Of a DNA stretch of 64,000 nucleotides, positions 27,137-63,707 are shown in pieces. The translations under genes were made by a program, and so were the position numbers. How positions within the stretch are numbered: position 1 is the first letter of the stretch; each line of letters opens with the position of its first letter. The stretch lies in the NCBI GenBank assembly GCA_025782395.1, contig JALGZD010000154.1, positions 163 to 64,162 on the forward strand. Direction: 5' to 3'. Source of the DNA: a bacterium. Its GTDB lineage: Bacteria > Joyebacterota > Joyebacteria > Joyebacterales > Joyebacteraceae. The notes beneath the pieces are model-generated. The model was not told the DNA's origin. It searched no databases and was given only the letters and a program-made list of their open reading frames with translations.

Positions 27137-27180
27137 TTGAGCAGCCAGACCCAACCCTGGGCACTACACGTGGGGGACAC

Positions 27181-29418: not shown

Positions 29419-29461
29419 CGGGAGTTGCCGAGCGGGAGTCGGAGTCGTGTCAGGAGGAAGC

Positions 29462-30649: not shown

Positions 30650-30660
30650 GAGGAGTGGCG

Positions 30661-31428: not shown

Positions 31429-31784
31429 AGGGAATTCCACTGATCCTTCTGGCTGTGATGCTCGGCGCAACCGGTCAGATCATCATGAAGAAAGGGATGA
31501 TGATCTACGGCGAGGTCTCGGCAGGATCTGTCTGGAGCCAGCTCGTTCCGATACTCAAAGTGCCCCAGGTCTTCATCGGGTTTCTCTGCTACGGCATCAG
31601 TGCTGTGCTCTGGATCGCGGTCGTCTCGAACGTCGATCTGAGCCTGGCGTATCCAATGGTGAGTCTGGCGTACGTCATCGTCTTTGTTGCTTCGTGGCTT
31701 CTGCTCGGTGAGCAGATATCCGCGCTGCGTGTGGCGGGACTTGTGATCATCATCGCAGGAGTGCTCGTCATCTCAAGGAGCTAG
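31425..31784 (+). CDS. Small 4-TM DMT/EamA-like membrane protein (ArnE/ArnF-like putative lipid-sugar flippase subunit)
   Basis: 119 aa with four hydrophobic helices. LLAVMLGATGQIIMKKGM and SLAYPMVSLAYVIVFVASWLLLGEQIS resemble half-size EamA transporters. ATGA-type overlap with the GT2 gene. Confidence 0.65.
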   Translation: MKGIPLILLAVMLGATGQIIMKKGMMIYGEVSAGSVWSQLVPILKVPQVFIGFLCYGISAVLWIAVVSNVDLSLAYPMVSLAYVIVFVASWLLLGEQISALRVAGLVIIIAGVLVISRS

Positions 31785-33623: not shown

Positions 33624-33657
33624 GCCCGGACGAGGGACGAGACCAGCGATCAGCGGC

Positions 33658-37121: not shown

Positions 37122-37205
37122 CGACCTGTCGTGCAGTTCGAGAGAGCGTGTGAAGGTGCGTAGGAGCAACTCCGAGTAGGACCGACGAGTGCTAAAGGGG
37201 AGAAC

Positions 37206-38285: not shown

Positions 38286-38296
38286 CGGAGAGAACG

Positions 38297-39730: not shown

Positions 39731-39804
39731 GCAGGTGGCTCCCACGCGTCGCACATGCCCGAGAAGTAGCTTGAGGGCAATCAGAACGAAGCACTGACCG
39801 GGGT

Positions 39805-42156
39805 TTGGGGGTCGATCTGGTGGCGAAACGCGTGCTGCATGTAATCCGCTCCCTGGAAGCTGGGGGAGCAGAGCGCGTCGTCGTAGAGTACGCACTTCAT
39901 CACGATGTGTCTCGGTACTCTCCGGAGGTCTGCTGTCTCGACACGGACGGTAGACTTGCGGAAACGCTTCGCGACGCCGGTATTCCGGTGCACACGCTCC
40001 GCCGGAAGAGACGATTCGACCTCGGTGTTCTCTTCCAGCTGGTGAAGCTCATCTCCGAACGCAGATTCGACGTGGTGCACAGCCACGGCTCAGGGGCCAT
40101 GGCTTTCGCTGTGCCCGCGGGCGTGATCGCGGGAACACCGGTGATCGTGAGAACAGAGCATAATGTCGTCTATAACGGGTCCAGGCGGCGGCGGGTTCTG
40201 CGACGTCTCGCGGCTCTGAGGGAGGATGCACAGATTGCCGTGTCAGAAGCTGTGCGGCTGTCGCACATACGTGACGGAGGGGTACCGGCTGAGCGCTTCG
40301 TGACGATCCGAAACGGCATCGCGGCTGAGCGCCTGGCCGTACAGTCCGGTCGAGACGACGCGAGTCGCTCACTCGGCGTTTCGAACAGCGCCGTCGTGGC
40401 GCTGGCTGTGGGGAGTCTCACCGAGCAGAAGGACTACGTGAATCTGCTCAAGGCAGCGGCAGTAGTCGTGGCGCGCTTTCCGGACATTGTGTTCCTCATC
40501 GCCGGCGGTGGGGTTCTCGAAGGCGATCTCGCAAGCGCCGCCTCCACTCTGGGCGTGGGCGACAAGGTTCGGTTCCTCGGAGAGCGCGACGACGTGCCCC
40601 TGCTGCTCAGCCGCGCGGATATCATGGTGAACTCGTCGGCGTGGGAAGGCCTTCCGATAACGATTCTCGAGGCGATGGCGGCTGGGGTTCCAATAGTCGC
40701 GACGGATGTGGGTGGCACCGCGAAAGTTATCTCCGGAGACGACTGCGGACTCGTCGTGCCCTCCAAGGACCCCGAGTCTCTCGCGGCAGCGATTCTGAAA
40801 CTGGCGGAGACCCCTGAGCTTCGAGAACAACTGTCCTCTCGGGCTCGACAGATCTACCGGCGCAGGTATACGGCAGAGCAGATGACTCGAGAGACCGAAG
40901 CTCTCTACGATGTCTGCCGGCAGCGTTCTGCGCACCTTCTCGCATCCGGGCGGGTCAGGATTCTCTACATGATTGGGTGTCTGGCGAGAGGAGGAGCGGA
41001 ACGCCAACTAGCTGAACTGGTCACGCGAGTGGACCTTGAGCGTTTCGAGCCGGTTGTCTGCTCGCTTGCGCCGCTAGGTGCGCTTGCGGAGCCGATTGAA
41101 CGGGCGGGGGTCCGGGTCATGTCGCTCGAGAAGCGTCCCGGAGTCGGCTTTCTGGCACTGTGGCGCATTGTCCGTCTCATCCACGAGTTGCGGCCCGCGG
41201 TGCTTCACTCGTACCTCCCCCCCGCGAACTGGAGAGGACTCGTCGCAGGACGCGCTACCGCCGTACCGCTCATCGTGTCCTCCGTCAGGAATGTCGATTT
41301 TCACCTCGGCCTCGTGTCATCGATGCGCGACAGGGTGCTAGCCGTGCTGATTGACGTGATGGTGGCGAATGCAGAAGCCGTTCGTGACTATGTCATAGGC
41401 TCTCACTGGGTTTCCCGCGCCCGGACGCGCGTCATCTACAACGGCATATGCATTGGCAGACTGAACGGGAGTGAATCCAATCTCCGGAGCCGTTCCGGCA
41501 GTGCACATAGCGGCGGGACGGTTGTCGTTGTCGCCAGCCTGACTCCGAAGAAGGACCACGAGACCTTCCTGGCCTCAGCCCGTCTGGTGGCGGACGTGCT
41601 GCCGGACACTCGCTTTGTCATCGTCGGCGACGGGGAACTGAGAAACCATCTTGTCAATCGCACGGCTGAGCTGGGACTCGAGGACTGTGTGGTCTTCACT
41701 GGAGAGACGCCCGCTGTCGGGTTGCACCTGTCCGAGGCCGACGTGTCGGTGCTGACGTCGCTCAGAGAGGGGTGCTCTAATGTGGTCTTGGAGTCGATGG
41801 TGCTCGAGCGGCCCGTGGTCGCGACGGACGTCGGCGGAAACCGTGAACTCATCGAGGACGGTGTCACGGGCTTCCTCGTGAAGGCGGGAGATGTCGAAGG
41901 TATAGCCCGCAAGGTGATAGATCTCCTCGCCGACGAGCCACTCAGACAAAGGATGGGGAAGGCGGGTCGCGAGCGCGTTATCGAGAGGTTCGTGGCCGAG
42001 CGGATGATATCAGACACGATCGCGCTCTACGAGGAGATGCTCGACGCGCGCGTGCCTGGGCTGATGGACTGGACGCGCACTCGGAAGGCTCGGTACGGCT
42101 CCGAGCCGATCGCAACGCTCAAGCGCGGATCGGACTTGGTGGGGGAGCGGACATGA
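39805..42156 (+). CDS. Tandem GT4-GT4 fusion glycosyltransferase
   Basis: Two complete GT-B modules. Module 1: VLHVIRSLEAGGAERVV ... WEGLPITILEAMAAGVPIVATDVGG. Module 2: RILYMIGCLARGGAERQL ... REGCSNVVLESMVLERPVVATDVGGNRELIEDGVTGFLV. Start TTG 39805 or GTG 39820. Confidence 0.8.
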   Translation: MGVDLVAKRVLHVIRSLEAGGAERVVVEYALHHDVSRYSPEVCCLDTDGRLAETLRDAGIPVHTLRRKRRFDLGVLFQLVKLISERRFDVVHSHGSGAMAFAVPAGVIAGTPVIVRTEHNVVYNGSRRRRVLRRLAALREDAQIAVSEAVRLSHIRDGGVPAERFVTIRNGIAAERLAVQSGRDDASRSLGVSNSAVVALAVGSLTEQKDYVNLLKAAAVVVARFPDIVFLIAGGGVLEGDLASAASTLGVGDKVRFLGERDDVPLLLSRADIMVNSSAWEGLPITILEAMAAGVPIVATDVGGTAKVISGDDCGLVVPSKDPESLAAAILKLAETPELREQLSSRARQIYRRRYTAEQMTRETEALYDVCRQRSAHLLASGRVRILYMIGCLARGGAERQLAELVTRVDLERFEPVVCSLAPLGALAEPIERAGVRVMSLEKRPGVGFLALWRIVRLIHELRPAVLHSYLPPANWRGLVAGRATAVPLIVSSVRNVDFHLGLVSSMRDRVLAVLIDVMVANAEAVRDYVIGSHWVSRARTRVIYNGICIGRLNGSESNLRSRSGSAHSGGTVVVVASLTPKKDHETFLASARLVADVLPDTRFVIVGDGELRNHLVNRTAELGLEDCVVFTGETPAVGLHLSEADVSVLTSLREGCSNVVLESMVLERPVVATDVGGNRELIEDGVTGFLVKAGDVEGIARKVIDLLADEPLRQRMGKAGRERVIERFVAERMISDTIALYEEMLDARVPGLMDWTRTRKARYGSEPIATLKRGSDLVGERT

Positions 42157-43283
42157 CAGTGCGGAACACAGAAACGCGGGCGTTGTCCCGAGTGTGCCGA
42201 GACGTGGCGCGAGCAGTTCGCAACTCGCCGACGGTCGTTCGCTTGCTGAGTGCCGTGCCGGCCCGTGGGTGCGCGATTCTGCGCTACCATTCCGTCAACG
42301 ACGACCCTGCTTGGGTGAACGGCTACCTGCCCCCGAGTATCGTTGTAACGCCGAAAGCGTTCGAGGAGCATGTGCGGTATCTACGCAGGCACTTTGAGAT
42401 CGTGCCTATAGGACGGATCATCGAACTCGTCGCGAACGGACGAACGCCCGATCACAGATGGGTGGCGCTGACGTTCGACGACGGATACGAGGACAACTAC
42501 CGGGTCGCGTTTCCGATTCTGCGGGAGCATGGTGCCACAGCCGCTTTCTACATCACGACGGCGTGCGTCAGCGACGAGACGATCCTCTGGGGCGTGCGGC
42601 TTAGGCATGCGATCTGGAACACCGAGCGGACGGACCTCATCTGTCCATCGCTTGGGCACCGTCCCATCGACCTCTCCACAGAGGAATCTCGACATCGAAC
42701 TACGCGTTGGATCACCGGACTTGTGAAGTCCCGTGGGAAGACTGAGGCCGACGAGCTTCTTGACGAAGTCTTCGAAGAATGCGGCGTGCCGGTCGGGCAG
42801 ATCAGTCGCAGGATCATGATGAGCTGGGATGAGATTCGGGAGATGAGGGCCGCCGGAATGACGATAGGCGCGCACACGGCGAACCACTACAACCTCACGT
42901 GCCTTGACGATAGTGATGTCACCGCTGAAGTCGAGATCTCGAAGGAGACGATCGAAGCGGCACTCGGTGATCGGGTGGATCACTTCGCCTATCCAAACGG
43001 GAGAACCGACAAGCACTGTGACGCGCGGGTGGCGGGAATCGTGGCGAAGGCCGGCTATGAATCGGCAGTGACATCGGTGAATGGGCCGGCGGGGGGCAGG
43101 TTTTCGCCGTACGGTGTTCCTCGCGTCGGCATTGCAACTCGTCGCACCGGGATTGCGAAGTTCGCCGCCGATCTGCAGTACACGAGACTGTCGAGAGTAG
43201 TATCGCCCTCGATCGCCGAGATCAGTGCCGCAAGGAACGGCGCGGGCCGGGCCGCAAGGCGTAGCCGTGCGGAGCGTGAATAG
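42153..43283 (+). CDS. Polysaccharide deacetylase (CE4/NodB family)
   Basis: NodB motifs VALTFDDGYEDNY, GAHTANHYNL and FAYPNGR. ATGA overlap with the preceding gene. Confidence 0.85.
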   Translation: MTVRNTETRALSRVCRDVARAVRNSPTVVRLLSAVPARGCAILRYHSVNDDPAWVNGYLPPSIVVTPKAFEEHVRYLRRHFEIVPIGRIIELVANGRTPDHRWVALTFDDGYEDNYRVAFPILREHGATAAFYITTACVSDETILWGVRLRHAIWNTERTDLICPSLGHRPIDLSTEESRHRTTRWITGLVKSRGKTEADELLDEVFEECGVPVGQISRRIMMSWDEIREMRAAGMTIGAHTANHYNLTCLDDSDVTAEVEISKETIEAALGDRVDHFAYPNGRTDKHCDARVAGIVAKAGYESAVTSVNGPAGGRFSPYGVPRVGIATRRTGIAKFAADLQYTRLSRVVSPSIAEISAARNGAGRAARRSRAERE

Positions 43284-43284
43284 A

Positions 43285-44523
43285 GTGACGCAGGCGAAGA
43301 CACAGAGTGCGACGCGAGCGGCGGGGCAACTGCCGGTGAAGGTAGCCTTCTGGGCCGGGTCGTTTGAACGCGCCGGTACGCAGCAGTTCCTTCTGGAGCT
43401 CCTGCGCAGAATCGATCGCGAGCGTTTCGATCCCGTCGTGATGTCGACCGTCAAGACAGGAGAGCTCCTCTCCGATATCGAGTCGCTGGACATCGAGGTC
43501 CACGAGTTCGGCACGGGCAGGGCGCTTCTGAGTCCGGCCACGATCCGTGGTCTTCTCCGGGCCGCACGGTTTCTCAGGCGCGAGCGAGTGGCGGTGCTTA
43601 ATTGCATGCTGGGGTTGACCACGCTCGTGGGGCCGTTCGTCGGGCGTGTCGCGGGGGTCCCCGTTGTGCTGAACAATCAGCGCAATCTCAGCTACTGGAT
43701 TCACGGGAGATTCCGTGAGGGGGTCTACGGTTTCGTCAACAGAAGGCTTGTGGATGCTGTGCTTGTGAACTCCGCGGCTGCTGCGGCTGAGCTCGTGAAG
43801 CGATTCAGGGTCCCGCCAGAGAAAGTCGTCTCGGTAGGCACCGGTATCGATCTCAGACGTATCGCCGAAGCCCGCGCAGGAGATGAACTCGCGAGTGAGC
43901 TTGGGCTCGCAGGACGGACCGTCGTTGGGACCGTGGCCAAGCTCAGCCCTGTGAAGGGGCACCAGCACTTCATTGCGGCGGCCGCCGAAATCGCCAAGGC
44001 AAGACCCGACGTAGTCTTTCTTATCGTAGGTGATGGAATCAGGAAGAAGGAACTCGAGGATATGGCGACGGAGCTGGGAATCGCGGACAGAGTCACATTC
44101 GCAGGTGTGCGAGACGACGTACCGTCGCTTCTTGAACTGATGGATGTGTTCGTTCTGGGTTCGCTCTCAGAGGGTTCACCGAACGCCGTTCTCGAAGCGA
44201 TGGCGGCAGGTCTGCCGGTGGTCGCCACTGATGTCGGCGGTCTCCCTGAAATGGTCATCGACGGCGAGAGCGGGATCCTCGTGCCGCCCGGTGATTCTGA
44301 TGCGCTGGCGGAGGCCATCGGCGAGCTTCTGGATGATCCGTCGCGCGCCGAAACGATGGGACGCGCGGGTCTGGCGCTGGCAATGGACAGGCATGACATC
44401 GAGAAGGTCGTTCGGGAGGTGGAAGGCGTCATGGATCGTCTGCTCGATGCGTCCCGCGATCGGGTGTCCGGGGCACGCGGGCGATCCGTTTCCGAAAGCG
44501 TCAAGTTGGAGCAGCAGGAATGA
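43285..44523 (+). CDS. GT4-family glycosyltransferase
   Basis: SLSEGSPNAVLEAMAAGLPVVATDVGGLPEMVIDGESGILV. Proposed start is GTG 43285 just after the upstream stop; the ORF-track start 43225 overlaps by 59 nt. Confidence 0.8.
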   Translation: MTQAKTQSATRAAGQLPVKVAFWAGSFERAGTQQFLLELLRRIDRERFDPVVMSTVKTGELLSDIESLDIEVHEFGTGRALLSPATIRGLLRAARFLRRERVAVLNCMLGLTTLVGPFVGRVAGVPVVLNNQRNLSYWIHGRFREGVYGFVNRRLVDAVLVNSAAAAAELVKRFRVPPEKVVSVGTGIDLRRIAEARAGDELASELGLAGRTVVGTVAKLSPVKGHQHFIAAAAEIAKARPDVVFLIVGDGIRKKELEDMATELGIADRVTFAGVRDDVPSLLELMDVFVLGSLSEGSPNAVLEAMAAGLPVVATDVGGLPEMVIDGESGILVPPGDSDALAEAIGELLDDPSRAETMGRAGLALAMDRHDIEKVVREVEGVMDRLLDASRDRVSGARGRSVSESVKLEQQE

Positions 44524-46325
44524 GGGTGCTTTTCATCACACAGTACTACCCTCCGGAGACGGGGGCGGCGCCGGCTCGTGCCTATCACTTCGCAAGGGGA
44601 CTCGCGAGGAGAGGACATGACGTCACCGTCGTTACGGGTATGCCCAATCACCCAAGCGGCGTCAAGCATGCGGCCTACCGATGGCGCATGGCGGCCAGGG
44701 AGGAGCACGACGACATCAAGGTGCGTCGCTGTTCCCTCTACGCCAGCCCAAAGAAGACGTTCGCGAGGCGTCTTCTCAACCAGTTCTCGTTCATGCTCAC
44801 GTCTTTCTTCGGCAGCCTGACAGTGCGTCGCTCGGACATCGTTCTTGTCACTTCACCGCCCCTTTTCCTCGGGATCACCGCGTGGCTCATAGCGATCCTG
44901 AAAGGCGTTCCGTTCGTGCTCGATGTGCGTGACTACTGGCCACACGCCGCAGTGGCGCTGGGGCAGCTCAGCGACAGACGCATCATCAGATGCGCGGAGC
45001 GACTGGAGATGTTGCTCTACCGGCACGCAGCCATGGTCGTCGCCGTTACGCCCGGGATGGTTCGCCTGATCAAGGAGCGCGGCATCTCGGAACAACGTGT
45101 TGTGCTCATCACGAACGGTTCCGACACAGAGACATTCACTCCCGGGGAGCGCAGTGTCGACATCGACGAGGAGTGCATGACGGTTCTCTACAGCGGCACT
45201 CACGGGCTGGTTCATGGCATGGATGTGATCATCGAGACCGCCGACATTCTGAGGGACGATAAGAGCCTACGCTTCCTCCTGATCGGCGATGGGGTCGCGA
45301 AGGACAGGCTCGTGTCTACGGCTCTCAGGAAGGGACTCACGAATATTGAGTTCCGTAGCAGTCTCAGGCCGGTGGAGCTCGCCACTGCCATCCATTGTGC
45401 TGGAGTATGCATCGCGACCACCGACGGTTCCGAGTTCAGCCGCGGGACCATACCGGTCAAGCTCTTCGACTACATGGCGTGTGGTCGCCCGGTTGTTGCG
45501 GCGCTTGAGGGCGACGGCGCCGAGTGTGTCAATCGGTCGGGCGGCGGTATCGTTGTGACTCCAGGCGACGCCGGGGCGTTGGCTGAAGCGCTCAAGCGCC
45601 TCGCCGATGACGGGGAGTGTCGAGAGAGACTCGGGAAGGCGGGGAGTGAGTTCGTGGCGAGGGAGTACTCGCGCGGGATCCTGGCTGAGAAGATGGAAGA
45701 GCTCCTCGACAAGATCGTCGCTGCTGAGCGATCGCTCAAAGGAAAACACCTTGCGTTCAGGCGCTATCTTGCCATCAAGTACACGCTCGACTTCGTAGGC
45801 GCTCTCCTCCTGATCGTTCTTGGCGCACCCATCTTCCTGGCGGCGGCGATCGTCGTCAGGCTGGACTCTCGGGGGAGAACCGTATTCAGGCAGCGCAGGA
45901 TCGGGATCCATTCGCACGAATTCACGATACTCAAGTTCCGGACGATGAAGGAAGAAACACCCGATCTTGCCACGGATCTCATAGTGCACGAAGACGTGGA
46001 CTATACAACGCGTGTCGGTCGTATTCTGAGGAAGACGGGCGCAGACGAGCTCCCGAATCTGATCAATATCCTGAGGGGAGAGATGAGCATCGTCGGGCCG
46101 CGCCCCGCGCTCTACAACCAGTACGAACTGATAGATCTCAGGTGTCGGACACTTGGAGATCTGGTCAGACCCGGTCTGACCGGTTGGGCGCAGATAAACG
46201 GAAGGGACGCGATCTCACTCGATGAGAAGGTGAGACTCGACGCGTTCTATGTGAAGAACTGTTCGTTCCTCCTGGATCTCAAGATCTGCATGAGAACGGT
46301 CTTCGTTCTGTGCAACACGGAGTAG
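44520..46325 (+). CDS. Fusion of WcaI/WbuB-like GT4 glycosyltransferase (aa 1-~400) with a monotopic phosphoglycosyl transferase (Bac_transf, aa ~405-601)
   Basis: N-terminus MRVLFITQYYPPETGAAPARAYHFARGLARRGHDVTVVTGMPNHPSG. C-terminus has a re-entrant helix (FVGALLLIVLGAPIFLAAAIVV), then FRQRRIG...FTILKFRTMK and DELPNLINILRGEMSIVGPRP. Confidence 0.85.
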   Translation: MRVLFITQYYPPETGAAPARAYHFARGLARRGHDVTVVTGMPNHPSGVKHAAYRWRMAAREEHDDIKVRRCSLYASPKKTFARRLLNQFSFMLTSFFGSLTVRRSDIVLVTSPPLFLGITAWLIAILKGVPFVLDVRDYWPHAAVALGQLSDRRIIRCAERLEMLLYRHAAMVVAVTPGMVRLIKERGISEQRVVLITNGSDTETFTPGERSVDIDEECMTVLYSGTHGLVHGMDVIIETADILRDDKSLRFLLIGDGVAKDRLVSTALRKGLTNIEFRSSLRPVELATAIHCAGVCIATTDGSEFSRGTIPVKLFDYMACGRPVVAALEGDGAECVNRSGGGIVVTPGDAGALAEALKRLADDGECRERLGKAGSEFVAREYSRGILAEKMEELLDKIVAAERSLKGKHLAFRRYLAIKYTLDFVGALLLIVLGAPIFLAAAIVVRLDSRGRTVFRQRRIGIHSHEFTILKFRTMKEETPDLATDLIVHEDVDYTTRVGRILRKTGADELPNLINILRGEMSIVGPRPALYNQYELIDLRCRTLGDLVRPGLTGWAQINGRDAISLDEKVRLDAFYVKNCSFLLDLKICMRTVFVLCNTE

Positions 46326-47273
46326 ATGGGGCGGGGAACAGGCATTCGAAGGAGAGAGCGCGACGTGGAGCGAAAAGCAGAATCGGCGAAGAGCCCGACC
46401 TGGATAGTGGAAGTCGGCACGGCCGCGGCCGTGCTGCTTCTGACAGTTCTCGTCTATCGCGGTACGTTCGCGACGCTCTGGAGAACGTGGGCGACGAATC
46501 CGAACTACTCACACGGCTATCTTATTCCGCCCGTTGTCGCGTTTCTCCTTTGGAGAGACCGCGGTCGTTTCCTGGACAGGCGATCATCCGGTTCGGGCTG
46601 GGGCGTGTTCCTCGTGGCCGTTGCTCTCCTGGGTCATGTGGTGTCGCTGAGGGCCGGCGTCTTTATGACGCAGGGCTATTCGTTTGTCCTTCTGCTCTTT
46701 GGGCTTTCGCTCATCTTCTTCGGAGGCAGGGCGACGCGGACTGTGTGGTTCCCGCTCGCGTATCTGGTCTTCATGCTCCCCATGCCACCCTATCTGATGA
46801 ACGTCGCCAGTTTCAGGTTGAAGCTCGTGGCGGCTCATGTCGGGAGCGCGATCGCGATCAAGATGGGCATACCGCTCGCCCGCTCGGGGATGACCATTCA
46901 CATTCCAGCCGGATCCCTTCGGATAGCCGACCCATGCAGCGGTTTGAGGTCGCTCATAGCCCTTGTCGCTCTGGGGGCGCTGTTCGCCTGGTTCACGAGT
47001 GGCCGCGGGTGGAAGAGAGGCGTGCTCTTTCTGTCGGCGATTCCGCTTGCCGTCCTTGGCAACACGATACGGATCGCCATCCTCTGTGCAGTGGCCAACG
47101 TATGGGGGATCGACGTGGCGCTTGGGTTCTTTCACGATTTCTCAGGCTTTCTGCTGTTCGCGATTGCATTGTGTGGTTTCTTCATCGTGCGGAGACTCCT
47201 CCGATGTGAGGGGGACGGCGCCGGTGACGCCGAAGAGGAAGGTTGTCCTGCCGGACAGGGGGTGGCGAGATGA
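46326..47273 (+). CDS. xrtA: Exosortase (XrtA-like by neighbourhood)
   Basis: NPNYSHGYLIPPV. Catalytic Cys in ADPCSGLRSL (TGC 46935-46937), Arg in LGNTIRIA, His in FFHDFSGFLLF. About 8 TM helices. Subtype inferred only from the adjacent epsI/prsK/prsR. Confidence 0.85.
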   Translation: MGRGTGIRRRERDVERKAESAKSPTWIVEVGTAAAVLLLTVLVYRGTFATLWRTWATNPNYSHGYLIPPVVAFLLWRDRGRFLDRRSSGSGWGVFLVAVALLGHVVSLRAGVFMTQGYSFVLLLFGLSLIFFGGRATRTVWFPLAYLVFMLPMPPYLMNVASFRLKLVAAHVGSAIAIKMGIPLARSGMTIHIPAGSLRIADPCSGLRSLIALVALGALFAWFTSGRGWKRGVLFLSAIPLAVLGNTIRIAILCAVANVWGIDVALGFFHDFSGFLLFAIALCGFFIVRRLLRCEGDGAGDAEEEGCPAGQGVAR

Positions 47274-47917
47274 GGAGACAGACGGCAGCGGTTGTCGTGA
47301 TCGCTATGCTCGCTGCTACGGCCGTCTACGTGTTCATGAATCCCCCGGCGAAGCTCGCTCTCGGTGCTGATACGCTTTCGATATTCCCGCGGGGATTCGG
47401 CGAGTGGACCAGTACGGATCTGGAGTTCTCGGAGGTTGTCTACGATGAACTCGCAGCCGACGGCACCCTGGTCCGTGAGTACAGGAGGGGGGAAGAGAGC
47501 CCCGTATGGTTCATCATAATCTACCACGAGAACAGAAGGTACGGTGCGCACGATCCCATGGTCTGTTACCGGGCTCAAGGCTGGGATGTCGAGGATGAGG
47601 GGACGATTGCGCTGACGCGCCGATCGGGAAGCTTCGACGCGAACTGGGCTCTCGTCTCTGAGGACGGCCGCGACCGGCTGGCCCTCTACTGGTGGTACAC
47701 GGCGGGAGATCTCGCAACGGGCGACAGAGACAGTTTTATGGCCAGGATGGCGGCATCAGGCATCCGGTCGAACATCACGTTCGGGGCGTTCATGCGCGCT
47801 TCCACAGACGTTCACGACGGAGATGTCGAGTCAGCGCGAGCGAGGCTGCGGGAGTTCTCGGAGGACGCACTTCCACACGTGGCGGCCATCTTCGCCTCCG
47901 AAGACGGGGAGCGATAG
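47270..47917 (+). CDS. epsI: EpsI family exosortase-associated protein
   Basis: ATGA overlap with the exosortase stop. N-terminal TM. Family motif GAHDPMVCYRAQGW. Also LALYWWY. Confidence 0.8.
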   Translation: MRRQTAAVVVIAMLAATAVYVFMNPPAKLALGADTLSIFPRGFGEWTSTDLEFSEVVYDELAADGTLVREYRRGEESPVWFIIIYHENRRYGAHDPMVCYRAQGWDVEDEGTIALTRRSGSFDANWALVSEDGRDRLALYWWYTAGDLATGDRDSFMARMAASGIRSNITFGAFMRASTDVHDGDVESARARLREFSEDALPHVAAIFASEDGER

Positions 47918-47968
47918 ATTCCGGTCCCAGGAAGGGGATGCTCGATATCCCCTTCATCGAAGGGAGTC

Positions 47969-48838
47969 TTGATGGACATCGTTCAGCAGTTCAATGCGCT
48001 TATCTGGAGTTGGGCGGAGACGCTGAGAGCGCTCAGGCGTCGCGTCGGTGTTCATCCACTCCTTGTCTACGCAGCGGTGCAGCTGGTCGTGCTCGTGATG
48101 CTGGCGTTGTTCGCCTACCCGCCGTTCGTGTCGTTCGTCATGCCGCTGATCCGCTGGCGACTCGGTGAGGGCGCGCTGCACTATCCGACGAGTTTTCTCG
48201 CCTTGAGAGCGATCTTCGGGCAGGCGGACATGGTGCTGACCGTTCTCCTTGGTGGGTTCGTTACCGGAGCGGCCGTCTGGCTGTTCTCCGTTTACTACGG
48301 GGGTGGGGAGGATCCGCGGACCACTGGGTTCCGGGTGGCGGCCAAACGCTACATCCCGCTTCTCGTGATCGCTCTGGTCGGACTCGCGATTGCGCAGATC
48401 GTAACCCGCGTGCCGATGGGGTTCTGGGGACATCTCGCCGACGAGCGACCGATGCGATTCCGCATCTTAAGGATGATGACGATCGCGGTGGTGATGGGAG
48501 TGCAGGCGCTCCTTGTCTATGCGATTCCGTACGTCATTCTGGGCGGCAGGAGAGTCTGGTCCGCACTTGGTTCGAGCGTGTCGCTCGCTGTTCGCAATCC
48601 GGTCACTACCTACTTGATAGTAGCAGTGCCGGCCGCTCTCGAACTTCTGCCGGCGCTGTTGGTGCGCAACAGCTCTGTCATCGCGTACCGCTTTGCTCCT
48701 GAAGGCCTGGCGGTAGTGCTTGGCCTCTGGGTTGTCGTGATCTTCTTCGTTACCTATCTGATGGTCGGCGCGGCTACGCGCTTCTATCTCTACGCGACAC
48801 AAGACGACGCCGAGGCCGGCGGCGCGGCGGAGGTGTGA
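47969..48838 (+). CDS. Uncharacterised ~6-TM membrane protein
   Basis: 289 aa with six long hydrophobic segments and no motif I recognise. Sits between epsI and the TPR lipoprotein gene (3-nt gap to the latter). Confidence 0.6.
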   Translation: MMDIVQQFNALIWSWAETLRALRRRVGVHPLLVYAAVQLVVLVMLALFAYPPFVSFVMPLIRWRLGEGALHYPTSFLALRAIFGQADMVLTVLLGGFVTGAAVWLFSVYYGGGEDPRTTGFRVAAKRYIPLLVIALVGLAIAQIVTRVPMGFWGHLADERPMRFRILRMMTIAVVMGVQALLVYAIPYVILGGRRVWSALGSSVSLAVRNPVTTYLIVAVPAALELLPALLVRNSSVIAYRFAPEGLAVVLGLWVVVIFFVTYLMVGAATRFYLYATQDDAEAGGAAEV

Positions 48839-48841
48839 CAG

Positions 48842-50374
48842 ATGGTCATTCTTTCAAGAGGATCCGGGCTTTGCGGCGCTCTGCTCTGCGGGCTTCTTCT
48901 GCTCCTTGTCCTGACGATGACGGGCTGTGGAGAAGAGGAGTTCACCGCGAGATACCGCGCTGAGAAAATGCTCTGGAATGCAAGCAAACTCGAGCGGGCG
49001 GCCGGCGAGAACCCCGAACTCGCTACCGACGAGGTAAGAGCCCTGATCGCGGAGAAGTACGAGCTGATAGTCGCCGGGTTCCCTCCACCGGAGAAGACCG
49101 AGGAATCGGAGCTGTCGGCGGACGTTCTCGTAACCGCGTCTATCTCGGGTCGCAGCAGGATCATTCTGGCCGGGCTTCTGGCGGCAGAGGACAGGCGCGA
49201 CGAATCGGCAGAGCTCCTCGCTTCAGTGCGAGATGGATACACGGCTCTGAAGCCCCTGGCCGTCGAAGCAGCGCTTTCACTGGCGTCGCTCTACGAGGCT
49301 TCGGGCGACTGGGAGGCGGCCGTGGCCGAGCTCGATCTGCTTGTGAAACGCTGGCCGCCCGCGCACGGGGAAGGCTCTGCGCCCGACACACGCATCTTGA
49401 GGGCTCCAATGCGGAAGGCAAGTGGCTACATGCTCAGGGGCAAGGAGTTGCCGGCGGCGGGCGCCTTCGACGAGGCTCGTTCGTATTGGCGCCACTGGGA
49501 GGAGGAGTGGCCGGGGAGCAGCACAGCGCTGACGGCTGCGAGCCTTGTGGCGGAGAGCTTCTCGGTCGAACAGAGATGGGCAGAGGCGATAGACTCATAC
49601 GACAGATTCGACAGGGTCTATGGTAGCGAGAACAACAGGGCGGCGCTGTGGCTGACGGTGGCGGACATATACAGGGAAAGGCTTGGAAAGACGGCGGACG
49701 CGCGGATCTACTACGAGAAGGTGTTGGAGGCCTACAGCGATGGGATCGCCGGTGCGTCAGCCAATGTGGCACTTGCGGAGGATGACATCAGAAGCGCGCG
49801 CTACTCGCAGGCGAGGGATCGACTCGAGGCTGTTATCGCCGGATTCGACGACGAAGCGGCGGTGGCCGCAACGGTAACCTATCACATCGCCAGGAGCTTC
49901 GAACTGGAGGGGCACTGGGATGAGGCGATGCCGCACTACCGCACTCTCTCGTCGCGCTACCCGACAAGCATGTACGGTCTGGCCGCTCCGCTGCACGTCG
50001 CGGATCACTTCTCGACGACGGGAGAGGCTGCAGCTGCGGCAACGGCGCTCTCCGTCGCCGCGGACGCATACGAGCGCGTCATACGGGACTTCGCGGGGAC
50101 TCCGGCCGAGCTGATGGCTCGAAACAACCTCGTCGAGACAAGGCTGCGCCAGAAACTCTGGAGGCAGGCCGCGGAGATCCTCGTGGAGAGCGCGGAGCGC
50201 TTCAGCGCGTCGAGGGCTTCGGCAGGGATGCTGCTCCAGGCTGCGGGTCTCTATTCGGGCAAGCTTGGTGATGATGATGCCGCGAGGCGTCTGCTGGAAT
50301 CCGTCATCCGTCTCTATCCTGGAGAAGGAGGCGGCGATATCGCCGAGCAGAAACTTGCTGAGATAGGTGGCTGA
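48842..50374 (+). CDS. TPR-repeat lipoprotein (PrsT-like by position)
   Basis: Lipobox-like LVLTMTGC. Helical, Ala/Leu/Glu-rich repeats along the whole length. Immediately upstream of prsK. Confidence 0.65.
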   Translation: MVILSRGSGLCGALLCGLLLLLVLTMTGCGEEEFTARYRAEKMLWNASKLERAAGENPELATDEVRALIAEKYELIVAGFPPPEKTEESELSADVLVTASISGRSRIILAGLLAAEDRRDESAELLASVRDGYTALKPLAVEAALSLASLYEASGDWEAAVAELDLLVKRWPPAHGEGSAPDTRILRAPMRKASGYMLRGKELPAAGAFDEARSYWRHWEEEWPGSSTALTAASLVAESFSVEQRWAEAIDSYDRFDRVYGSENNRAALWLTVADIYRERLGKTADARIYYEKVLEAYSDGIAGASANVALAEDDIRSARYSQARDRLEAVIAGFDDEAAVAATVTYHIARSFELEGHWDEAMPHYRTLSSRYPTSMYGLAAPLHVADHFSTTGEAAAAATALSVAADAYERVIRDFAGTPAELMARNNLVETRLRQKLWRQAAEILVESAERFSASRASAGMLLQAAGLYSGKLGDDDAARRLLESVIRLYPGEGGGDIAEQKLAEIGG

Positions 50375-50379
50375 TCGAG

Positions 50380-52485
50380 ATGAGCGCAAGCGCCGCATTG
50401 ATGATGACAGCAACGGTATTCGCCCTCGCGTTCGGAGTGACGGCCTTGCTCCGTGCGAGACGCAGGGTGGACAGGCTGTCGTTCGGCGCAGGTGCCGTGG
50501 TCCTGGCGTTCTGGCTCTTTGCTGTCGGCTCGATCGCCGTCAGCCGTGACCCGGGCGTCGTGGGTGCTCGCGTAGCTGTCGCGGCGGCGCTGAGTGCCAT
50601 TCTGCCGATTCCGTGGACGTTCGTGACGATCGTTTTCGCCCGCGAGAGCCGCCCTGCGATGCTGCGCCGGTGGCGGTTCTATCTGATAGGGCTTTCTCTT
50701 GCGGGGTTGTACTTCGCCGCGCGTTCCCTTTTTGGGGGAGTGGTCCCCGTCATCGGTCAGAAGGCCGGTGACTACGTTCTGTTCCTGGATGGCACGGGGC
50801 GGGCGATGGGCGTGTATCTGGTGGCCTCTATAGTAGTGATGCTGTTCAATCTCGAGACAACGGCGCGGTGCGCACGCGGGGCGGAGCTGGCAAAAGCCAA
50901 GTTTGCGCTGATAGGTCTGGCTGCCGTGATGGTCTATCACCTCTTCGTTCTGTCACTCGCCACCGTCTACTCCACAGTCAGCGTCCAGCATCTGGTGGCG
51001 GGATCGGTGCCGATACTCGCTGCGGGAGTGCTGATTGCGTACTCGGTTGCGCGGCGCAGGCTTGCGGATGCTCACGTGCGTGTCGGCCGTCCCGTCTTCT
51101 ACGGTTCGGTCACCACGTTCATTGCCGGCACGTACCTCATGACACTGGGCGCCGTGGCCCTGGTCGCGCGGAGCCGCGGGTGGGGGGTCTCGTCGCTTGG
51201 CGTTACATCGCTCGTCTTTCTGGCGCTGCTTCTCCTGGCCATGTTCTTCGCATCGTCGCGTGTAAGGAGAGGAATCAGGAGGTTCATAGACAGCAATTTC
51301 TACGTAAGCAGGTACGACTACCGGAGAGAGTGGGAGACAACTTCAGAGGCACTCTCCGGCGCGACGAGTGAGCGTGAAGTGCTTGCGGCAGTGGTCAAGG
51401 TTGTCAGAGATTCGCTCGATGCGTCGACCGTGGTCGTGGCCGGCGTGGACAGGTCGACCTGCCCGGCAGCAGTTCGCGTCGTGGGTGATGCGCGGACGGA
51501 ACACGCTGCGGCGATCGGCGATCCCGCTCTCCTCGCGCTGCTCTCCGAGCGCGGAGAGGCCGTAAGGATTGGAATGGTGGATTCGGATCCGGCACTGGAC
51601 GGATGGGTCGCCCGTCATCCAGCCCCTTTGTCAGGGCCTTCGCCTGATCTGGTCGTGCCGCTCATTGCGGCGCGTGAAGTGGTTGGAGTCGCGCTCGTTT
51701 CATTGGGCTCCGCCCGCCGCACGTACGAGGATCTTGAAATCCTCTCTACGCTCGGACGTCAAGCAGGGAGCGCCCTTCTGGCGGCGAGGCTCTCGGATCG
51801 GCTTGCGGAGACACGAGGACTGGAGTCGGTTCACAGGGTCTCCTCGTTCGTAATCCACGATCTCAAGAACTGCGTTTCCGGTCTGTCACTGACTCTCGCG
51901 AATGCGAGGAATGGACTGGACGATCCATCGTTCCGACCGCACCTCATGACTGCGATGGAGGAATCGGTGTCGGCGATGGAGCGAGTGATCGAGAGAGTGG
52001 CCGGTGTGTCCGGAGAAGCGGAGCCTTCGCTCGAATCCGTCGAACTCGGCGATCTCATCGAGCGTGCGCTGGCGCGCGCCGGCGTGACTCAGCCCGGTTC
52101 ACAGACAGAGTCCGCGATCAACCTCGACGGAGCCGCAGAGGTTCGGGTGGATCCCGAGCAGCTTCTCACGGTTCTGGAGAATCTCATCACGAACTCCCTC
52201 GAAGCCATGAACGGAATGGGACGAATAGAAGTGACCGGTCGGAGCGGGGGAAACGGGTCAGTGCTGCTGCGCATCAGTGACTCAGGACCGGGTATCGAGC
52301 CTGAGATGGCTATGGACGATGTGCTTTTCTCAGCTTTCAGGACCACGAAGCCGGGCGGTCTCGGCATCGGGCTCTACCAGAGCAGGCGGATCATGGAGGC
52401 CATGGGAGGCAGCATCACGCTTGTGGACGGGAGAGACGGAGCGGCGTTCGAACTGTGGATACCGACGGCAGCTCCGCGTTTCTAG
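50380..52485 (+). CDS. prsK: PEP-CTERM-system-type sensor histidine kinase (PrsK-like)
   Basis: The N-terminal ~300 aa are polytopic, followed by a GAF-like region. H-box SSFVIHDLKNCVSGLS, N-box ENLITNSLEAM, G-boxes SDSGPGI and GGLGIGLYQSR. Confidence 0.8.
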   Translation: MSASAALMMTATVFALAFGVTALLRARRRVDRLSFGAGAVVLAFWLFAVGSIAVSRDPGVVGARVAVAAALSAILPIPWTFVTIVFARESRPAMLRRWRFYLIGLSLAGLYFAARSLFGGVVPVIGQKAGDYVLFLDGTGRAMGVYLVASIVVMLFNLETTARCARGAELAKAKFALIGLAAVMVYHLFVLSLATVYSTVSVQHLVAGSVPILAAGVLIAYSVARRRLADAHVRVGRPVFYGSVTTFIAGTYLMTLGAVALVARSRGWGVSSLGVTSLVFLALLLLAMFFASSRVRRGIRRFIDSNFYVSRYDYRREWETTSEALSGATSEREVLAAVVKVVRDSLDASTVVVAGVDRSTCPAAVRVVGDARTEHAAAIGDPALLALLSERGEAVRIGMVDSDPALDGWVARHPAPLSGPSPDLVVPLIAAREVVGVALVSLGSARRTYEDLEILSTLGRQAGSALLAARLSDRLAETRGLESVHRVSSFVIHDLKNCVSGLSLTLANARNGLDDPSFRPHLMTAMEESVSAMERVIERVAGVSGEAEPSLESVELGDLIERALARAGVTQPGSQTESAINLDGAAEVRVDPEQLLTVLENLITNSLEAMNGMGRIEVTGRSGGNGSVLLRISDSGPGIEPEMAMDDVLFSAFRTTKPGGLGIGLYQSRRIMEAMGGSITLVDGRDGAAFELWIPTAAPRF

Positions 52486-52517
52486 AGGGAGTACGGGCGA
52501 AAGGTCTGGTGGGCAGC

Positions 52518-53897
52518 GTGCCGGAGACCAAGCGAATCCTCATTGTGGACGACGATCGCGTAATCTGCGAGCAGCTCGTGTGGGCCCTCTCCGACGACTA
52601 TGAGGTTCACGCGGAAGCAACGGTCGATCGCGCGCTCGGCGTTGCCCGCAGCATTCGCCCGCATCTGGTGATGCTGGATCTCTCACTGACAGGGAGTCCG
52701 GGCGAAACGGAGGAGGGGTTTGAGCTCCTGAAACGTCTGATCCAGCGCGATCCCTCCGTAAAGGTCGTCATGGTTACTGCAAGCGACGACCGCGAACGGG
52801 CAGTCAGAGCCATCGAACTGGGCGCCTTCGACTACTACGTGAAGCCCGTGGACCTTGATGAACTGCGCGTGCTCATCAGGCGCGCTCTCTACGTTCAGGA
52901 GCTTGAGAGAACCTCTCGTGGCATTTCGGAGGATATGGGCGAACCGGCCCGGCTGGCTGGGCTCATCGGATCCGGTGATGCGATGAGAGGCGCGCTCGAA
53001 CTCGCGAAGGCCGCTGCTTTATCTGCCGCCCCGGTCGTCATTGTCGGGGAGAGTGGCACCGGCAGGCGCAGATTCGCGGAGACCATACATGGGATGAGCG
53101 ATCGCGCGTCACTGCCGTTTGTCACAGCTGCCGGCGGAGCTCTGTCAGGAGAGGCTGTAGAGCGCGAGATCTTCGGCAGGGTTCAGCACAGGACCATCGA
53201 ACCGGGGTGGCTCGAGCGGGCAGCCGGAGGAACGCTCTTTCTGAGAGATCTTGACAGATGCGCTGAGTCCATCGTGGAACGGCTGCGTGGCTACGTGGCC
53301 ACAGGTGTCTTCAGTCGAATCGGGGGTGGCGAACCCGTGCGACCGGACGTGCGCTTCATGGCCTCAATGGAATCCCCTGTGGCTGCCGGTCCTACTGCGT
53401 CCCGGCACGGATTTCTGGGCGCGCACATCATCGAGATTCCTCCTTTGAGAGAGCGGGGAGAAGACGTCCTGCTGCTCGCCCGCGAGTTCCTGGATCGTCT
53501 CTCCGGGTTGCGCGGGCGTCCCTCGCGGGGTTTCGGAAAGGCAGCCGTGCGGGCGTTGCTCAGTCACGGCTGGCCCGGCAACGTGACTGAGCTCGAGAAT
53601 CGAGTTCGGAGTGCCGTACTGTCCAATCGCCGCGGCGCTATTGCGGCATCCGATCTTGGGTTGGCGAGTGAAGATGAGGGAGGGAAGCAAACCCTGAGTG
53701 ACGCCAGACACGAACTCGAACGCGGCATGGTGGCCGCGGCACTCAGGAGAAGCGCGGGGAACGTGAGTCGGGCTGCCAGGTCGATCGGGGTCAGCCGTCC
53801 GACGATGTACGATCTCATAAGAAGGCACGGTCTCAAACCGGTGGACTACAAGTGTCGCAACGGCGGGACGGGCCGAGGAGGATCGGGGGCTGCATAG
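52518..53897 (+). CDS. prsR: PrsR-like response regulator (receiver + degenerate sigma-54-interaction AAA+ + Fis-type HTH)
   Basis: Receiver ILIVDDD...VMLDLSL...YVKP. AAA+ module VIVGESGTGRRRFAETIH ... GGTLFLRDLD ... PPLRERGEDV ... WPGNVTELEN. HTH NVSRAARSIGVSRPTMYDLIRRHGL. Start GTG 52518 (alternative 52509). Confidence 0.8.
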   Translation: MPETKRILIVDDDRVICEQLVWALSDDYEVHAEATVDRALGVARSIRPHLVMLDLSLTGSPGETEEGFELLKRLIQRDPSVKVVMVTASDDRERAVRAIELGAFDYYVKPVDLDELRVLIRRALYVQELERTSRGISEDMGEPARLAGLIGSGDAMRGALELAKAAALSAAPVVIVGESGTGRRRFAETIHGMSDRASLPFVTAAGGALSGEAVEREIFGRVQHRTIEPGWLERAAGGTLFLRDLDRCAESIVERLRGYVATGVFSRIGGGEPVRPDVRFMASMESPVAAGPTASRHGFLGAHIIEIPPLRERGEDVLLLAREFLDRLSGLRGRPSRGFGKAAVRALLSHGWPGNVTELENRVRSAVLSNRRGAIAASDLGLASEDEGGKQTLSDARHELERGMVAAALRRSAGNVSRAARSIGVSRPTMYDLIRRHGLKPVDYKCRNGGTGRGGSGAA

Positions 53898-53943
53898 GCG
53901 CGGCCCATTAGGCTGTGGCCGCATGGGCGCGGCCGTGATGAGA

Positions 53944-53972
53944 TTGACAGGCGATGGCCGCAGTCATAGAAT
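53944..53972 (+). promoter_or_regulatory. Sigma-70-like promoter (TTGACA-17-TAGAAT)
   Basis: TTGACA at 53944-53949, a 17-nt spacer, and TAGAAT at 53967-53972. It lies 68 nt upstream of ATG 54040. Confidence 0.55.
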
Positions 53973-56530: not shown

Positions 56531-56683
56531 GTCGGCCCCCCGGCTCCTCGCCCCAGCGTGAGATGGAATACCAGCCTAACTGATGTCCCTATGGTGAGTT
56601 AACGTCCCCACTCAGGAAAACGGCCGGGTGTGTCGTGCCCTCCGGTCGCTTTGGGATATCAGAAGCATCTGTTACTTACCAGT

Positions 56684-56699
56684 TGGCACAACTTGTGCA
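56684..56699 (+). promoter_or_regulatory. Candidate sigma-54 promoter (TGGCAC-N5-GTGCA)
   Basis: TGGCACAACTTGTGCA has GG/GC at the exact -24/-12 spacing. It lies in a 517-nt intergenic region, 243 nt upstream of the 853-aa FN3 protein gene. Confidence 0.5.
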
Positions 56700-59689: not shown

Positions 59690-59718
59690 TTGACAGGCCG
59701 GATTCGTTCTGCTAAATG
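59690..59718 (+). promoter_or_regulatory. Sigma-70-like promoter (TTGACA-17-TAAATG)
   Basis: -35 TTGACA at 59690-59695, a 17-nt spacer, and -10 TAAATG at 59713-59718 (weak last position). It lies ~100 nt upstream of ATG 59820. Confidence 0.35.
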
Positions 59719-60704: not shown

Positions 60705-60733
60705 TTGCCGAGTTATGGAACCTGTGGTAGTAT
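60705..60733 (+). promoter_or_regulatory. Sigma-70-like promoter (TTGCCG-17-TAGTAT)
   Basis: -35 at 60705-60710, a 17-nt spacer, and -10 TAGTAT at 60728-60733. It lies 65 nt upstream of ATG 60799. Confidence 0.4.
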
Positions 60734-60798
60734 TGGTATTAGTGGATTGAAAAGCAGGTCGCTGACAGCTAATGCCGTTCTTGACAGGAGGTAGCGCC

Positions 60799-63545: not shown

Positions 63546-63691
63546 CTGATCCTCCAGTTCGAACCCGCTTTGGCACTGCGGGCGGATGTGCGCAAAGGTG
63601 CAGCCGTCCAGCCTCACGGGCGGCCACAGATCCCGTCTGCCACAGCGACTATAGCCAGTCGTCTCACACATGGCAACATCTACCACAGCAC

Positions 63692-63707
63692 TGCAATATG
63701 TGTACCA
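63692..63707 (-). promoter_or_regulatory. Candidate sigma-54 promoter (TGGTAC-N5-TTGCA)
   Basis: The minus strand reads TGGTACACATATTGCA. GG/GC are at canonical spacing with a perfect TTGCA -12 box. It lies ~147 nt upstream of GTG 63545. Confidence 0.5.

Follow-up and report, generated by a model that had tools for sequence, protein, structure and literature searches.

The PEP-CTERM genes of Proteobacteria have a sigma-54 promoter and, about 63 nt before it, a 17-nt PrsR box ending in TTTACA (PMC1569441), and RpoN dependence has been demonstrated for pepA (PMC9850573). PrsR itself (TIGR02915; Haft et al., 2006, PMC1569441) consists of a receiver (REC) domain, an AAA+ domain and a Fis-type helix-turn-helix (HTH); its gene adjoins that of PrsK, is preceded by a tetratricopeptide repeat (TPR) gene, and lies within a locus for exosortase, EpsI, PEP-CTERM proteins and exopolysaccharide (EPS). 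Enhancer-binding proteins (EBPs) without the GAFTGA motif are already a known kind: TyrR, HupR, PhhR, HsfA, NtrX, VpsR and DhaR, and also the NtrC proteins of R. capsulatus and Caulobacter, lack this motif and regulate sigma-70 promoters (PMC6158489; PMC3162934; bioRxiv 2023.06.06.543975), and about 110 defective EBP homologues had been listed by 2011 (PMC3162934). Here we report the analysis of a 64,000-nt stretch of bacterial DNA (contig JALGZD010000154.1, positions 163 to 64,162 of the forward strand; hereafter the window), in which a gene at 52455..53897 (+ strand) codes for a PrsR-derived response regulator made up of REC, a degenerate AAA+ domain, its lid and a Fis-type HTH.

The gene was delimited by its open reading frame (ORF) and translation and assigned by its Pfam domains and TIGR02915; its start codon is ambiguous (GTG at 52455, as in the 480-aa gene call, 52509 or 52518). 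Response_reg (PF00072), Sigma54_activat (PF00158), AAA_lid_14 (PF25601) and HTH_8 (PF02954) were all detected above the Pfam cutoffs, and the protein thus has the architecture of PrsR-type regulators (REC, sigma-54-interaction domain, Fis-type HTH). It also resembles PrsR in its setting, in tandem with a prsK gene, behind a TPR gene and within an exosortase/EpsI/PEP-CTERM/EPS locus that contains two PEP-CTERM proteins. The adjoining PrsK sensor histidine kinase (50380..52485, + strand) is apparently intact: it matches TIGR02916 over its full length (324.2 bits, above the cutoff of 300), contains GAF and HATPase_c domains, and carries the H-box FVIHDLKN, the N-box NLITNSLEAM and the G1 and G2 boxes SDSGPGI and GGLGIGL. 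It is presumably the cognate kinase of the regulator. The best NCBIfam model for the regulator is TIGR02915, also at full length, but with 323.5 bits against a curated cutoff of 502.6, whereas canonical PrsR proteins score 583-609 bits; the NtrX model NF051870 gave 217.5 bits (cutoff 600). Likewise, PF00158 is matched only at profile positions 1-144 of 168 with 74.5 bits, compared with 232-238 bits for canonical PrsR. Further differences from the PrsR system lie in the loss of all sigma-54 and ATPase signatures, in the sigma-70-type promoters of the PEP-CTERM genes (see below) and in the TPR protein (48842-50374), which is not PrsT (TIGR02917 21.6 bits, cutoff 312.2); the best match of the latter is YbgF-like, with 87.2 bits just below the cutoff of 90.1. 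A database look-up for the regulator's own protein returned no record.

Analysis of the central domain revealed that its hallmarks have been lost. Walker A reads GESGTGR, its Lys being now Arg (codon AGG at 53064-53066). A stretch of 16 residues, RVQHRTIEPGWLERAA (53178-53225), stands in place of the GAFTGA-bearing loop L1, and in the HMMER alignment of the regulator to NtrC1 structures the GAFTGA motif is covered exactly by a five-residue gap. Walker B reads FLRDLD (53238-53255), DE having become RD (AGA GAT at 53244-53249), and GFLGAHII (53409-53432; in the context SRHGFLGAHII) occupies the arginine-finger (R-finger) place of FRxDLYYRL. The alignment to NtrC1 added two losses, sensor I (AATN to ASME, N to E) and sensor II (NVRELxN to NVTELEN, R to T). 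Of the features expected of a bacterial EBP, the Walker A Lys, GAFTGA, the Walker B DE, sensor I, the R-finger stretch and the sensor II Arg are therefore all gone, and no GAFTGA-like string occurs in the window. On the other hand, the receiver residues are intact (VDDD, LVMLDLSL with the acceptor Asp at residue 54 if counting starts at the GTG at 52518, VMVTAS and YVKP), as is the Fis-type HTH GNVSRAARSIGVSRPTMYDL. An initial annotation, made from the sequence alone, had described an intact-looking receiver and HTH around an apparently dead sigma-54/AAA+ module with no GAFTGA loop. Its coordinates and motifs for Walker A, the 16-aa stretch, Walker B and GFLGAHII proved exact base by base, the formal hidden Markov model alignments disclosed no shifted GAFTGA or catalytic residues, and the sensor I and sensor II losses extend its list. 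Taken together, the HMMER alignments and the motif readings indicated that every signature of ATP hydrolysis and sigma-54 contact is absent. From the sequence we infer that the AAA+ domain is a conserved pseudo-ATPase, which would be unable to hydrolyse ATP or to engage sigma-54; the loss of the Walker A Lys, Walker B and sensor II argues against nucleotide binding as well.

Many catalytic residues have disappeared together, and in principle an error could explain the Lys to Arg change, a single transition; it had to be considered, then, whether the gene is a pseudogene in decay or an artefact of sequencing or assembly. This explanation is hardly credible. The ORF is intact in the window and in four other loci of the same group (group A, see below), which come from four other assemblies; the proteins, the nearest relatives of the regulator at 77-84% identity, carry the same substitutions and the same short loop, so that resequencing would not be expected to restore K or DE, a prospect that the initial annotation had left open. 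Three of these four assemblies, those present in the genome collection, are metagenome-assembled genomes (MAGs) of Candidatus Eisenbacteria. The ratio of nonsynonymous to synonymous substitutions (dN/dS), computed per region over the five orthologues (mean dS across regions about 0.45-0.9), was 0.16 in the AAA core and 0.11 in the Walker A-B stretch, both at a dS of about 0.8; the lid gave 0.19, REC 0.14 and the HTH 0.085, with a range by domain of 0.085-0.30. The dead AAA+ domain is under purifying selection. Moreover, the predicted fold is confident: an AlphaFold2 model obtained from a 65-sequence alignment had a mean pLDDT of 90.1 and showed a complete REC, a long linker helix, an AAA+ alpha/beta core, the lid and the HTH. 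In the model, the alpha/beta core plus lid typical of bacterial EBPs is thus predicted to persist, and its core superimposed in Foldseek on the NtrC1 AAA+ domain with a TM score of 0.85 and a root-mean-square deviation of 2.7 A. Finally, the gene has been kept at the same position of the locus throughout a clade of 41 members, described below.

With its EBP homology, its deleted or defective GAFTGA loop and its retained DNA-binding domain, the regulator has the features of an atypical EBP, and several described members of this kind can be compared with it. The top full-length Foldseek match of the model was NtrX of Brucella abortus (E 1e-33; PDB 5m7n/5m7o/5m7p), which has the same REC-AAA+-HTH organization and a shortened L1 loop without GAFTGA (bioRxiv 2023.06.06.543975) and has been reported to be a repressor and not a sigma-54 activator (PMC6158489). 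However, NtrX was crystallised with ATP and ADP and so has kept nucleotide binding, whereas the regulator further lacks the Walker A Lys, the Walker B DE, sensor I, the R-finger and sensor II; the two also differ in family, in partner kinase (NtrY versus PrsK) and in regulon. VpsR of Vibrio cholerae (PDB 7v2b) is likewise structurally similar and is an EBP homologue for exopolysaccharide and biofilm genes. It has no GAFTGA, its Walker B is non-catalytic (ND), and it acts as a class II-type activator of sigma-70 RNA polymerase (PMC6158489), but it works with c-di-GMP and needs no phosphorylation by a cognate kinase, while the regulator adjoins an intact PrsK and its degeneracy is more complete. 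In NtrC of R. capsulatus and Caulobacter crescentus, as in TyrR, PhhR, HupR, DhaR and HsfA, L1 is deleted or defective and sigma-70 promoters are regulated; in those NtrC cases receiver phosphorylation is still required. As a rule these proteins continue to depend on ATP binding: R. capsulatus NtrC needs it and Caulobacter NtrC is predicted to need both binding and hydrolysis (bioRxiv 2023.06.06.543975), whereas in the regulator no nucleotide-handling residue is recognisable except the P-loop glycines. Since most atypical EBPs still bind ATP, the regulator is more degenerate than any of them.

GAFTGA was found to be absent from 42 of the 120 best homologues of the regulator. In a tree built from the REC, lid and HTH columns only, 41 of these 42 proteins formed one pure clade, apart from the 78 canonical PrsR-like proteins; canonical PrsR proteins retain all the motifs. 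TIGR02915 is the top family model for every clade member (266-415 bits). The Walker B DE and the sensor II Arg are missing from all 41, the Walker A Lys has become Arg several times within the clade, the R-finger stretch has been lost in group A, to which the window belongs, and in group B, and in the latter the entire L1 segment has been deleted. Groups C and D lack the PrsK gene, and there the TPR gene abuts that of the regulator. Among the sister loci without PrsK (L013, 5138-6778; L017, 1340-2815; L006, 9983-11479; L007; L011), the receiver Asp has been replaced in L013 (VVVVNAEL) and in L017 (VVVVAAEL), and in group D, protein P0077 is no longer recognized by Response_reg. Judging from these sequences, the regulators of the lineages without PrsK and without the Asp appear to be orphaned and phospho-independent. 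By contrast with these losses, the HTH recognition region GNVSRAARxIGVSRPTMYDL is nearly invariant across the clade, and the slot of the regulator in the gene cassette was constant in every locus examined: priming glycosyltransferase (GT), exosortase, EpsI, a protein without assignment, TPR protein, PrsK where present, and regulator, followed by DUF5683/PEGA, fn3, large fn3 and PEP-CTERM proteins. MAGs with this cassette are represented by the records GCA_964516845.1, JAUXGN01, JAUVLP01, JAUWBY01 and JBDRIO01 and by the bin of a 760-kb contig of ERZ25039514. The degeneracy is limited to a 41-member clade of Eisenbacteria and related lineages, whereas a degeneracy both universal and already described would have spoken against the initial annotation; in the literature searched, no published description of this clade, or of any of the following points, was found. 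The novelty lies in an entire clade derived from PrsR, in Candidatus Eisenbacteria and in uncultured lineages related to it, the complete loss of ATPase signatures under purifying selection, the stepwise loss of kinase and then phospho-acceptor in sister lineages, and, alongside, a rewiring of PEP-CTERM genes from sigma-54 to sigma-70.

Outside this clade, the Walker A Lys to Arg change was also seen in unrelated EBP homologues without DE in L027 (10001-11326) and L029 (10001-11332), which are MAGs of Gammaproteobacteria or Proteobacteria; the motifs read GELGSGRE and GEAGSGRE. The short L1 segment of this group (RIEPGALDRAAGGTLY) is strikingly like that of the window (TIEPGWLERAAGGTLF), and its degeneration, as read from the sequences, may be convergent.

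The promoters of the locus were then compared across groups. Sigma-70-type promoters stood out in that their hexamers are invariant and their spacers free. Promoter P2 (TTGACT-N17-TAGCGT, 25994..26022, + strand), which heads the EPS/exosortase/prsK/regulator operon, has conserved boxes and a free spacer in six loci. The unit immediately downstream of the regulator, formed by a DUF5683/PEGA gene (54040-54786) and an fn3 gene (54814-56424), is preceded by TTGACA-N17-TAGAAT (53944..53972, + strand; 11 of 12 consensus positions), which is conserved in groups A-D as TTGACA-N16-CATAGAAT. Each of the two PEP-CTERM genes has a promoter of this type on the + strand: TTGACA-N17-TAAATG (59690..59718) lies before the gene at 59820-60629, and is conserved in the window, L001, L004 and L005, and TTGCCG-N17-TAGTAT (60705..60733) lies before the gene at 60796-61572, and is conserved in the same loci and also in L006. 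The arrangement of PrsR box and sigma-54 promoter was looked for at both genes, and neither a -24/-12 element nor a dyad box was found there. On the basis of their promoter sequences, the PEP-CTERM genes of this locus have, unlike those of Proteobacteria, switched to sigma-70-type promoters.

Two 17-bp dyads occur upstream of P2. Box 1, TGTCGACAAACTTTACA (TGT-N11-ACA; 25960..25976), ends 17 nt upstream of the -35 box, and box 2, TGTAAACTGCCTCGACA (25860..25876), is its inverted counterpart; relative to the sigma-70 start, the two are centred at about -61 and -161. Conservation of box 1 extends over six loci, group D among them; box 2 lies 100-101 nt upstream of box 1 in the four loci that carry both and is partial in a fifth. 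A position weight matrix (PWM) derived from the boxes matched only at the operon head within the cassette, and in 1.13 Mb of unrelated loci outside the clade it gave only five matches with a score of at least 16, which were weaker. Box 1 is the best candidate operator for the regulator. Other candidates were discarded: the palindrome GCACAA-N-TTGTGC, considered as a general operator, has a single copy per locus, and extra TGGCAC copies (25999, + strand; 26029, - strand) considered as half-sites fall inside the unconserved spacer of P2. An attempt to derive the PrsR box from canonical loci met with too few sigma-54 promoters, and the dyad PWM gave only background matches there.

The initial annotation had also noted sigma-54-type promoters in front of three units of the locus, and three is exactly the number that emerged. 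A strict pattern (TGGYAC-N6-TGCA) matched three times in the window (25797, + strand; 56684, + strand; 63707, - strand), against 0.14 expected, and none of 100 shuffles reached three. It was used in place of a loose pattern (up to two mismatches) because the latter showed no enrichment (41 matches, 48.9 expected). All three elements are intergenic and oriented towards the gene that follows, and each is conserved in orthologous loci from more than one group, where the boxes are invariant but the spacers vary. The first, P1 (TGGCACATCGGATGCA, 25797..25812, + strand), lies at the operon head; six loci from different groups share its TGGCACA-N3-GATGCA without variation. Some 20 nt downstream of P1, a short island GCGATGAGCGC (25833-25843) is conserved in groups A and B. 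The second lies at 56684-56699 (+ strand), upstream of a large fn3/FlgD_ig gene (56942-59503). The third, TGGTACACATATTGCA (63692..63707, - strand), precedes a unit composed of a GFO_IDH oxidoreductase gene (62529-63547) and a hexapeptide acyltransferase gene (61676-62431); five loci from three groups have conserved it as TGG(T/A)AC-N5-TTGCA, the spacer differing in L006. Directly downstream of it lies a sigma-70-type promoter, TTGCCA-N17-TATAGT (63648..63676, - strand; 10 of 12 consensus positions), conserved in five loci as TTGCCn-N17-TAnAGT. A fourth look-alike at 59673 was rejected, as it has the wrong GG-GC spacing and overlaps a conserved sigma-70 -35 box. Outside the EPS locus, a sigma-54-like match with one mismatch, CGGCACTTTTCTTGC, was noticed at 7467-7481 (+ strand) near an ORF boundary.

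The window yielded no RpoN box, no GAFTGA and no EBP-type Walker A, and 236 kb of clade loci yielded neither an RpoN box nor GAFTGA; these sequences represent a small fraction of any genome, so the absence of rpoN or of a second EBP from the genome does not follow. It is conceivable, if very improbable, that the -24/-12-like elements are binding sites of the regulator in the form of quasi-direct repeats (TKGCA-N6-TKGCA) in an organism that may lack sigma-54. Such a reading would account for the missing rpoN in the window and in the clade loci scanned, and the oxidoreductase element is centred about 59 nt upstream of the conserved sigma-70 start, an activator-like position. However, the DNA scanned is too small a part of any genome for a missing rpoN to say much, and sigma-54 is almost universal in diderms bearing lipopolysaccharide (PMC3162934). 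The three elements match the sigma-54 consensus in both boxes with exact spacing and free spacers, the element at the operon head is about 220 nt from P2, and a search downstream of the element of the large fn3 gene revealed no sigma-70 promoter.

The element of the large fn3 gene is peculiar in that a dyad is laid over it. It forms part of a block TGTTAC-N8-TGGCACAACTTGTGCA (56670..56699, + strand; TGTTAC-N8-TGGCACA-nnT-TGTGCA), the sole conserved island in about 275 nt across six loci, and its invariant positions outside the consensus (A -20, T -16 and G -15) exactly complete a dyad GCACA-N3-TGTGC, which may represent a second kind of operator. This observation is central to a different proposal, namely that the regulator is an ATP-independent repressor or anti-activator at sigma-54 promoters that an intact EBP encoded elsewhere activates. 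It would then occlude the -24/-12 region of the fn3 gene through GCACA-N3-TGTGC, and boxes 1 and 2, at about +45 and +145 from the predicted start of P1, would lie downstream of P1 as a possible roadblock. The way in which the non-consensus positions complete the dyad and the conserved TGTTAC that abuts the -24 box speak for it, as do the lack of an intact EBP gene in the window and, by analogy, the reported repressor activity of NtrX, the closest full-length structural match. However, the half-site centres of the 13-bp dyad are only about 8 bp apart, which is unusual for dimers with a Fis-type HTH, the dyad occurs once per locus, and the sigma-54 promoter of the oxidoreductase unit has none. 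The TGT-N11-ACA boxes fit the typical sites of the family better, and they are at a class-I activator position of a sigma-70 promoter. We hold this proposal to be unlikely. An allied and similarly doubtful idea, put forward here as speculation, is that the pseudo-EBP is a natural dominant-negative or occluding factor, which would bind the fn3 dyad and might insert itself, as a dead subunit, into the rings of an intact EBP. If so, PrsK signalling would gate sigma-54 promoters without ATP, and the regulator would define an activator-derived regulatory class, an 'anti-enhancer-binding protein', whose stepwise evolution is recorded in the clade.

A related possibility is that the regulator is the catalytically dead partner in mixed oligomers with an intact, GAFTGA-bearing EBP, which it would either tether to the locus through its HTH or poison within the ring, thereby tuning sigma-54 output. 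The purifying selection on the dead AAA+ core, in which the fold and the lid for ring contacts have been kept, would agree with this, the conserved sigma-54 promoters require some EBP, and obligate EBP pairs are known, such as HrpR/HrpS (PMC3105312). It is nevertheless improbable: neither the window nor the 236 kb of related loci yielded a candidate partner, both partners of known pairs retain GAFTGA and the ATPase motifs, and loss of the R-finger, which acts in trans, would inactivate neighbouring subunits.

From its dead module, the initial annotation had suggested a non-ATPase DNA-binding regulator, be it a repressor, an anti-activator or an activator of sigma-70 type, or dependence on a second, intact EBP; the analysis lends support to this, and none of the findings that could have overturned it was made. 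The reading that we favour, as somewhat probable, is that the regulator is a PrsK-controlled, ATP-independent atypical EBP acting on the sigma-70 promoter P2 through boxes 1 and 2, the sigma-54 promoters being served from elsewhere. As the residues have been lost while the gene has been kept intact, a phosphorylation-controlled DNA-binding switch is most likely, and the purifying selection together with the conserved sigma-70 promoters and the dyads at P2 favours a regulator of sigma-70 type. In the mechanism proposed, PrsK would phosphorylate the intact receiver domain, and phosphorylation, relayed by the long linker helix and the dead AAA+ scaffold, would alter the dimeric or oligomeric state of the regulator. 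The Fis-type HTH would then bind the 17-bp dyads near -61 and -161 of P2, and the regulator would control, and autoregulate, the sigma-70-dependent transcription of the operon without ATP. Opening of the three sigma-54-type promoters would fall to an EBP with GAFTGA whose gene lies elsewhere in the genome. The role of the dead AAA+ domain as an oligomerisation scaffold is suggested by the selection on the domain and by the 100-bp spacing of the boxes. We infer, likewise, the absence of ATPase activity and of sigma-54 contact, the phosphotransfer from PrsK, the binding to the dyads and the sign of regulation.

Several observations weigh against this reading of the regulator as a sigma-70-type switch. 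The P-loop glycines have been kept, and so some nucleotide binding is possible. Three conserved sigma-54-type promoters are found in the cassette without a local intact EBP, either in the window or in the 236 kb of related loci, which keeps the second-EBP idea alive for those promoters, and the dyad overlying the fn3 element fits a role at sigma-54 promoters. Box 1 and the proteobacterial PrsR box are alike only in length (17 nt) and in the 3' TTTACA, and the dyad boxes could belong to another transcription factor. Neither the sigma-70 promoters of the PEP-CTERM genes nor that of the DUF5683 unit yielded a conserved operator, so that direct control of the PEP-CTERM genes is unsupported.

These results have consequences for how such loci are annotated. 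PF00158 is present in the precomputed Pfam hits of every clade member, and annotation by domains only would suggest sigma-54 activators and would mispredict the regulation of PEP-CTERM and exosortase genes in an entire candidate phylum. The losses in the clade moreover form a natural series, in which GAFTGA and Walker B have been lost by all members, the Walker A Lys several times and the R-finger in two groups, and, in other lineages, the kinase and then the phospho-acceptor, with the DNA-binding helix and the AAA+ fold under selection throughout. Since the series is stepwise and the fold is kept, it is a useful system in which to study the role of an AAA+ domain after ATPase loss. It shows, too, a sigma-54 regulon rewired to sigma-70, and its three conserved sigma-54 promoters without a local activator constitute a concrete, testable gap.

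The operon in which the regulator is the last gene extends over about 28 kb from a Wza-like exporter gene (26156). Upstream of the regulator, its co-directional EPS/exosortase genes (26156..52485, + strand), recognized by Pfam and by conserved synteny, code in this order for the Wza-like exporter, a Wzz/bacterial tyrosine kinase (BY-kinase), an epimerase, glycosyltransferases, Wzy, a deacetylase, the priming GT, the exosortase (46326-47273; PF09721, 223.9 bits), EpsI (47243-47917; PF11984, 120 bits), a protein without assignment (47969-48838), the TPR protein and PrsK. The synteny is conserved in L001, L003-L006, L013 and L083-L087; a metagenome scan with the Wza-like protein retrieved a single distant match. 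Between the stop codon of the regulator and the sigma-70 promoter of the DUF5683 unit, a hairpin unit GATTAGACAGTGGCCGCATGGGTGCGGCC (53900-53940) is present in one copy in the window, about two to three in L004 (~11420-11500) and four in L001 (~11385-11500); variable in copy number, it may be terminator-like or REP-like.

Of the two PEP-CTERM genes, the one at 59820-60629 codes for a protein with the tail VPEP-TM-RRRR, and that at 60796-61572 also specifies a PEP-CTERM tail. By contrast, the large fn3/purple-acid-phosphatase-N protein (56942-59503) ends in FlgD_ig (PF13860) and has no PEP-CTERM tail, and it may therefore take another sorting route than the adjoining PEP-CTERM pair. Its gene is followed by a tandem array (59473-59628; period 34, 4.4 copies, 70% matches), whose units repeat the last codons of the gene (GCTCATCCGCTAG-like); L001 and L004 lack this array.

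The 5' leader of the same gene, downstream of the sigma-54-type promoter, contains a structured RNA of about 145 nt (56758-56906, + strand), which is also present in L001 (~14280-14430), L015 (~3335-3480), L004, L005, L006 and L013. No gathering-level match was obtained in Rfam, and the sole match, chrB-b (13 bits, E = 2.2), is at chance level. For an alignment of six sequences, three of them close, RNAalifold gave -62 kcal/mol and 44 pairs in six helices, with 94.7% of cells paired, and 12 compensatory pairs were counted, compared with 3.9 +/- 1.5 in shuffles (0 of 500 reached this number) and 1-3 in slid controls. The invariant single-stranded stretches include ACCCCCAC and GGCUACCCCCUAUGCACCCGCC, and the invariant core is found once per locus in seven loci. 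On this sequence evidence, the leader RNA is a candidate new riboswitch or attenuator.

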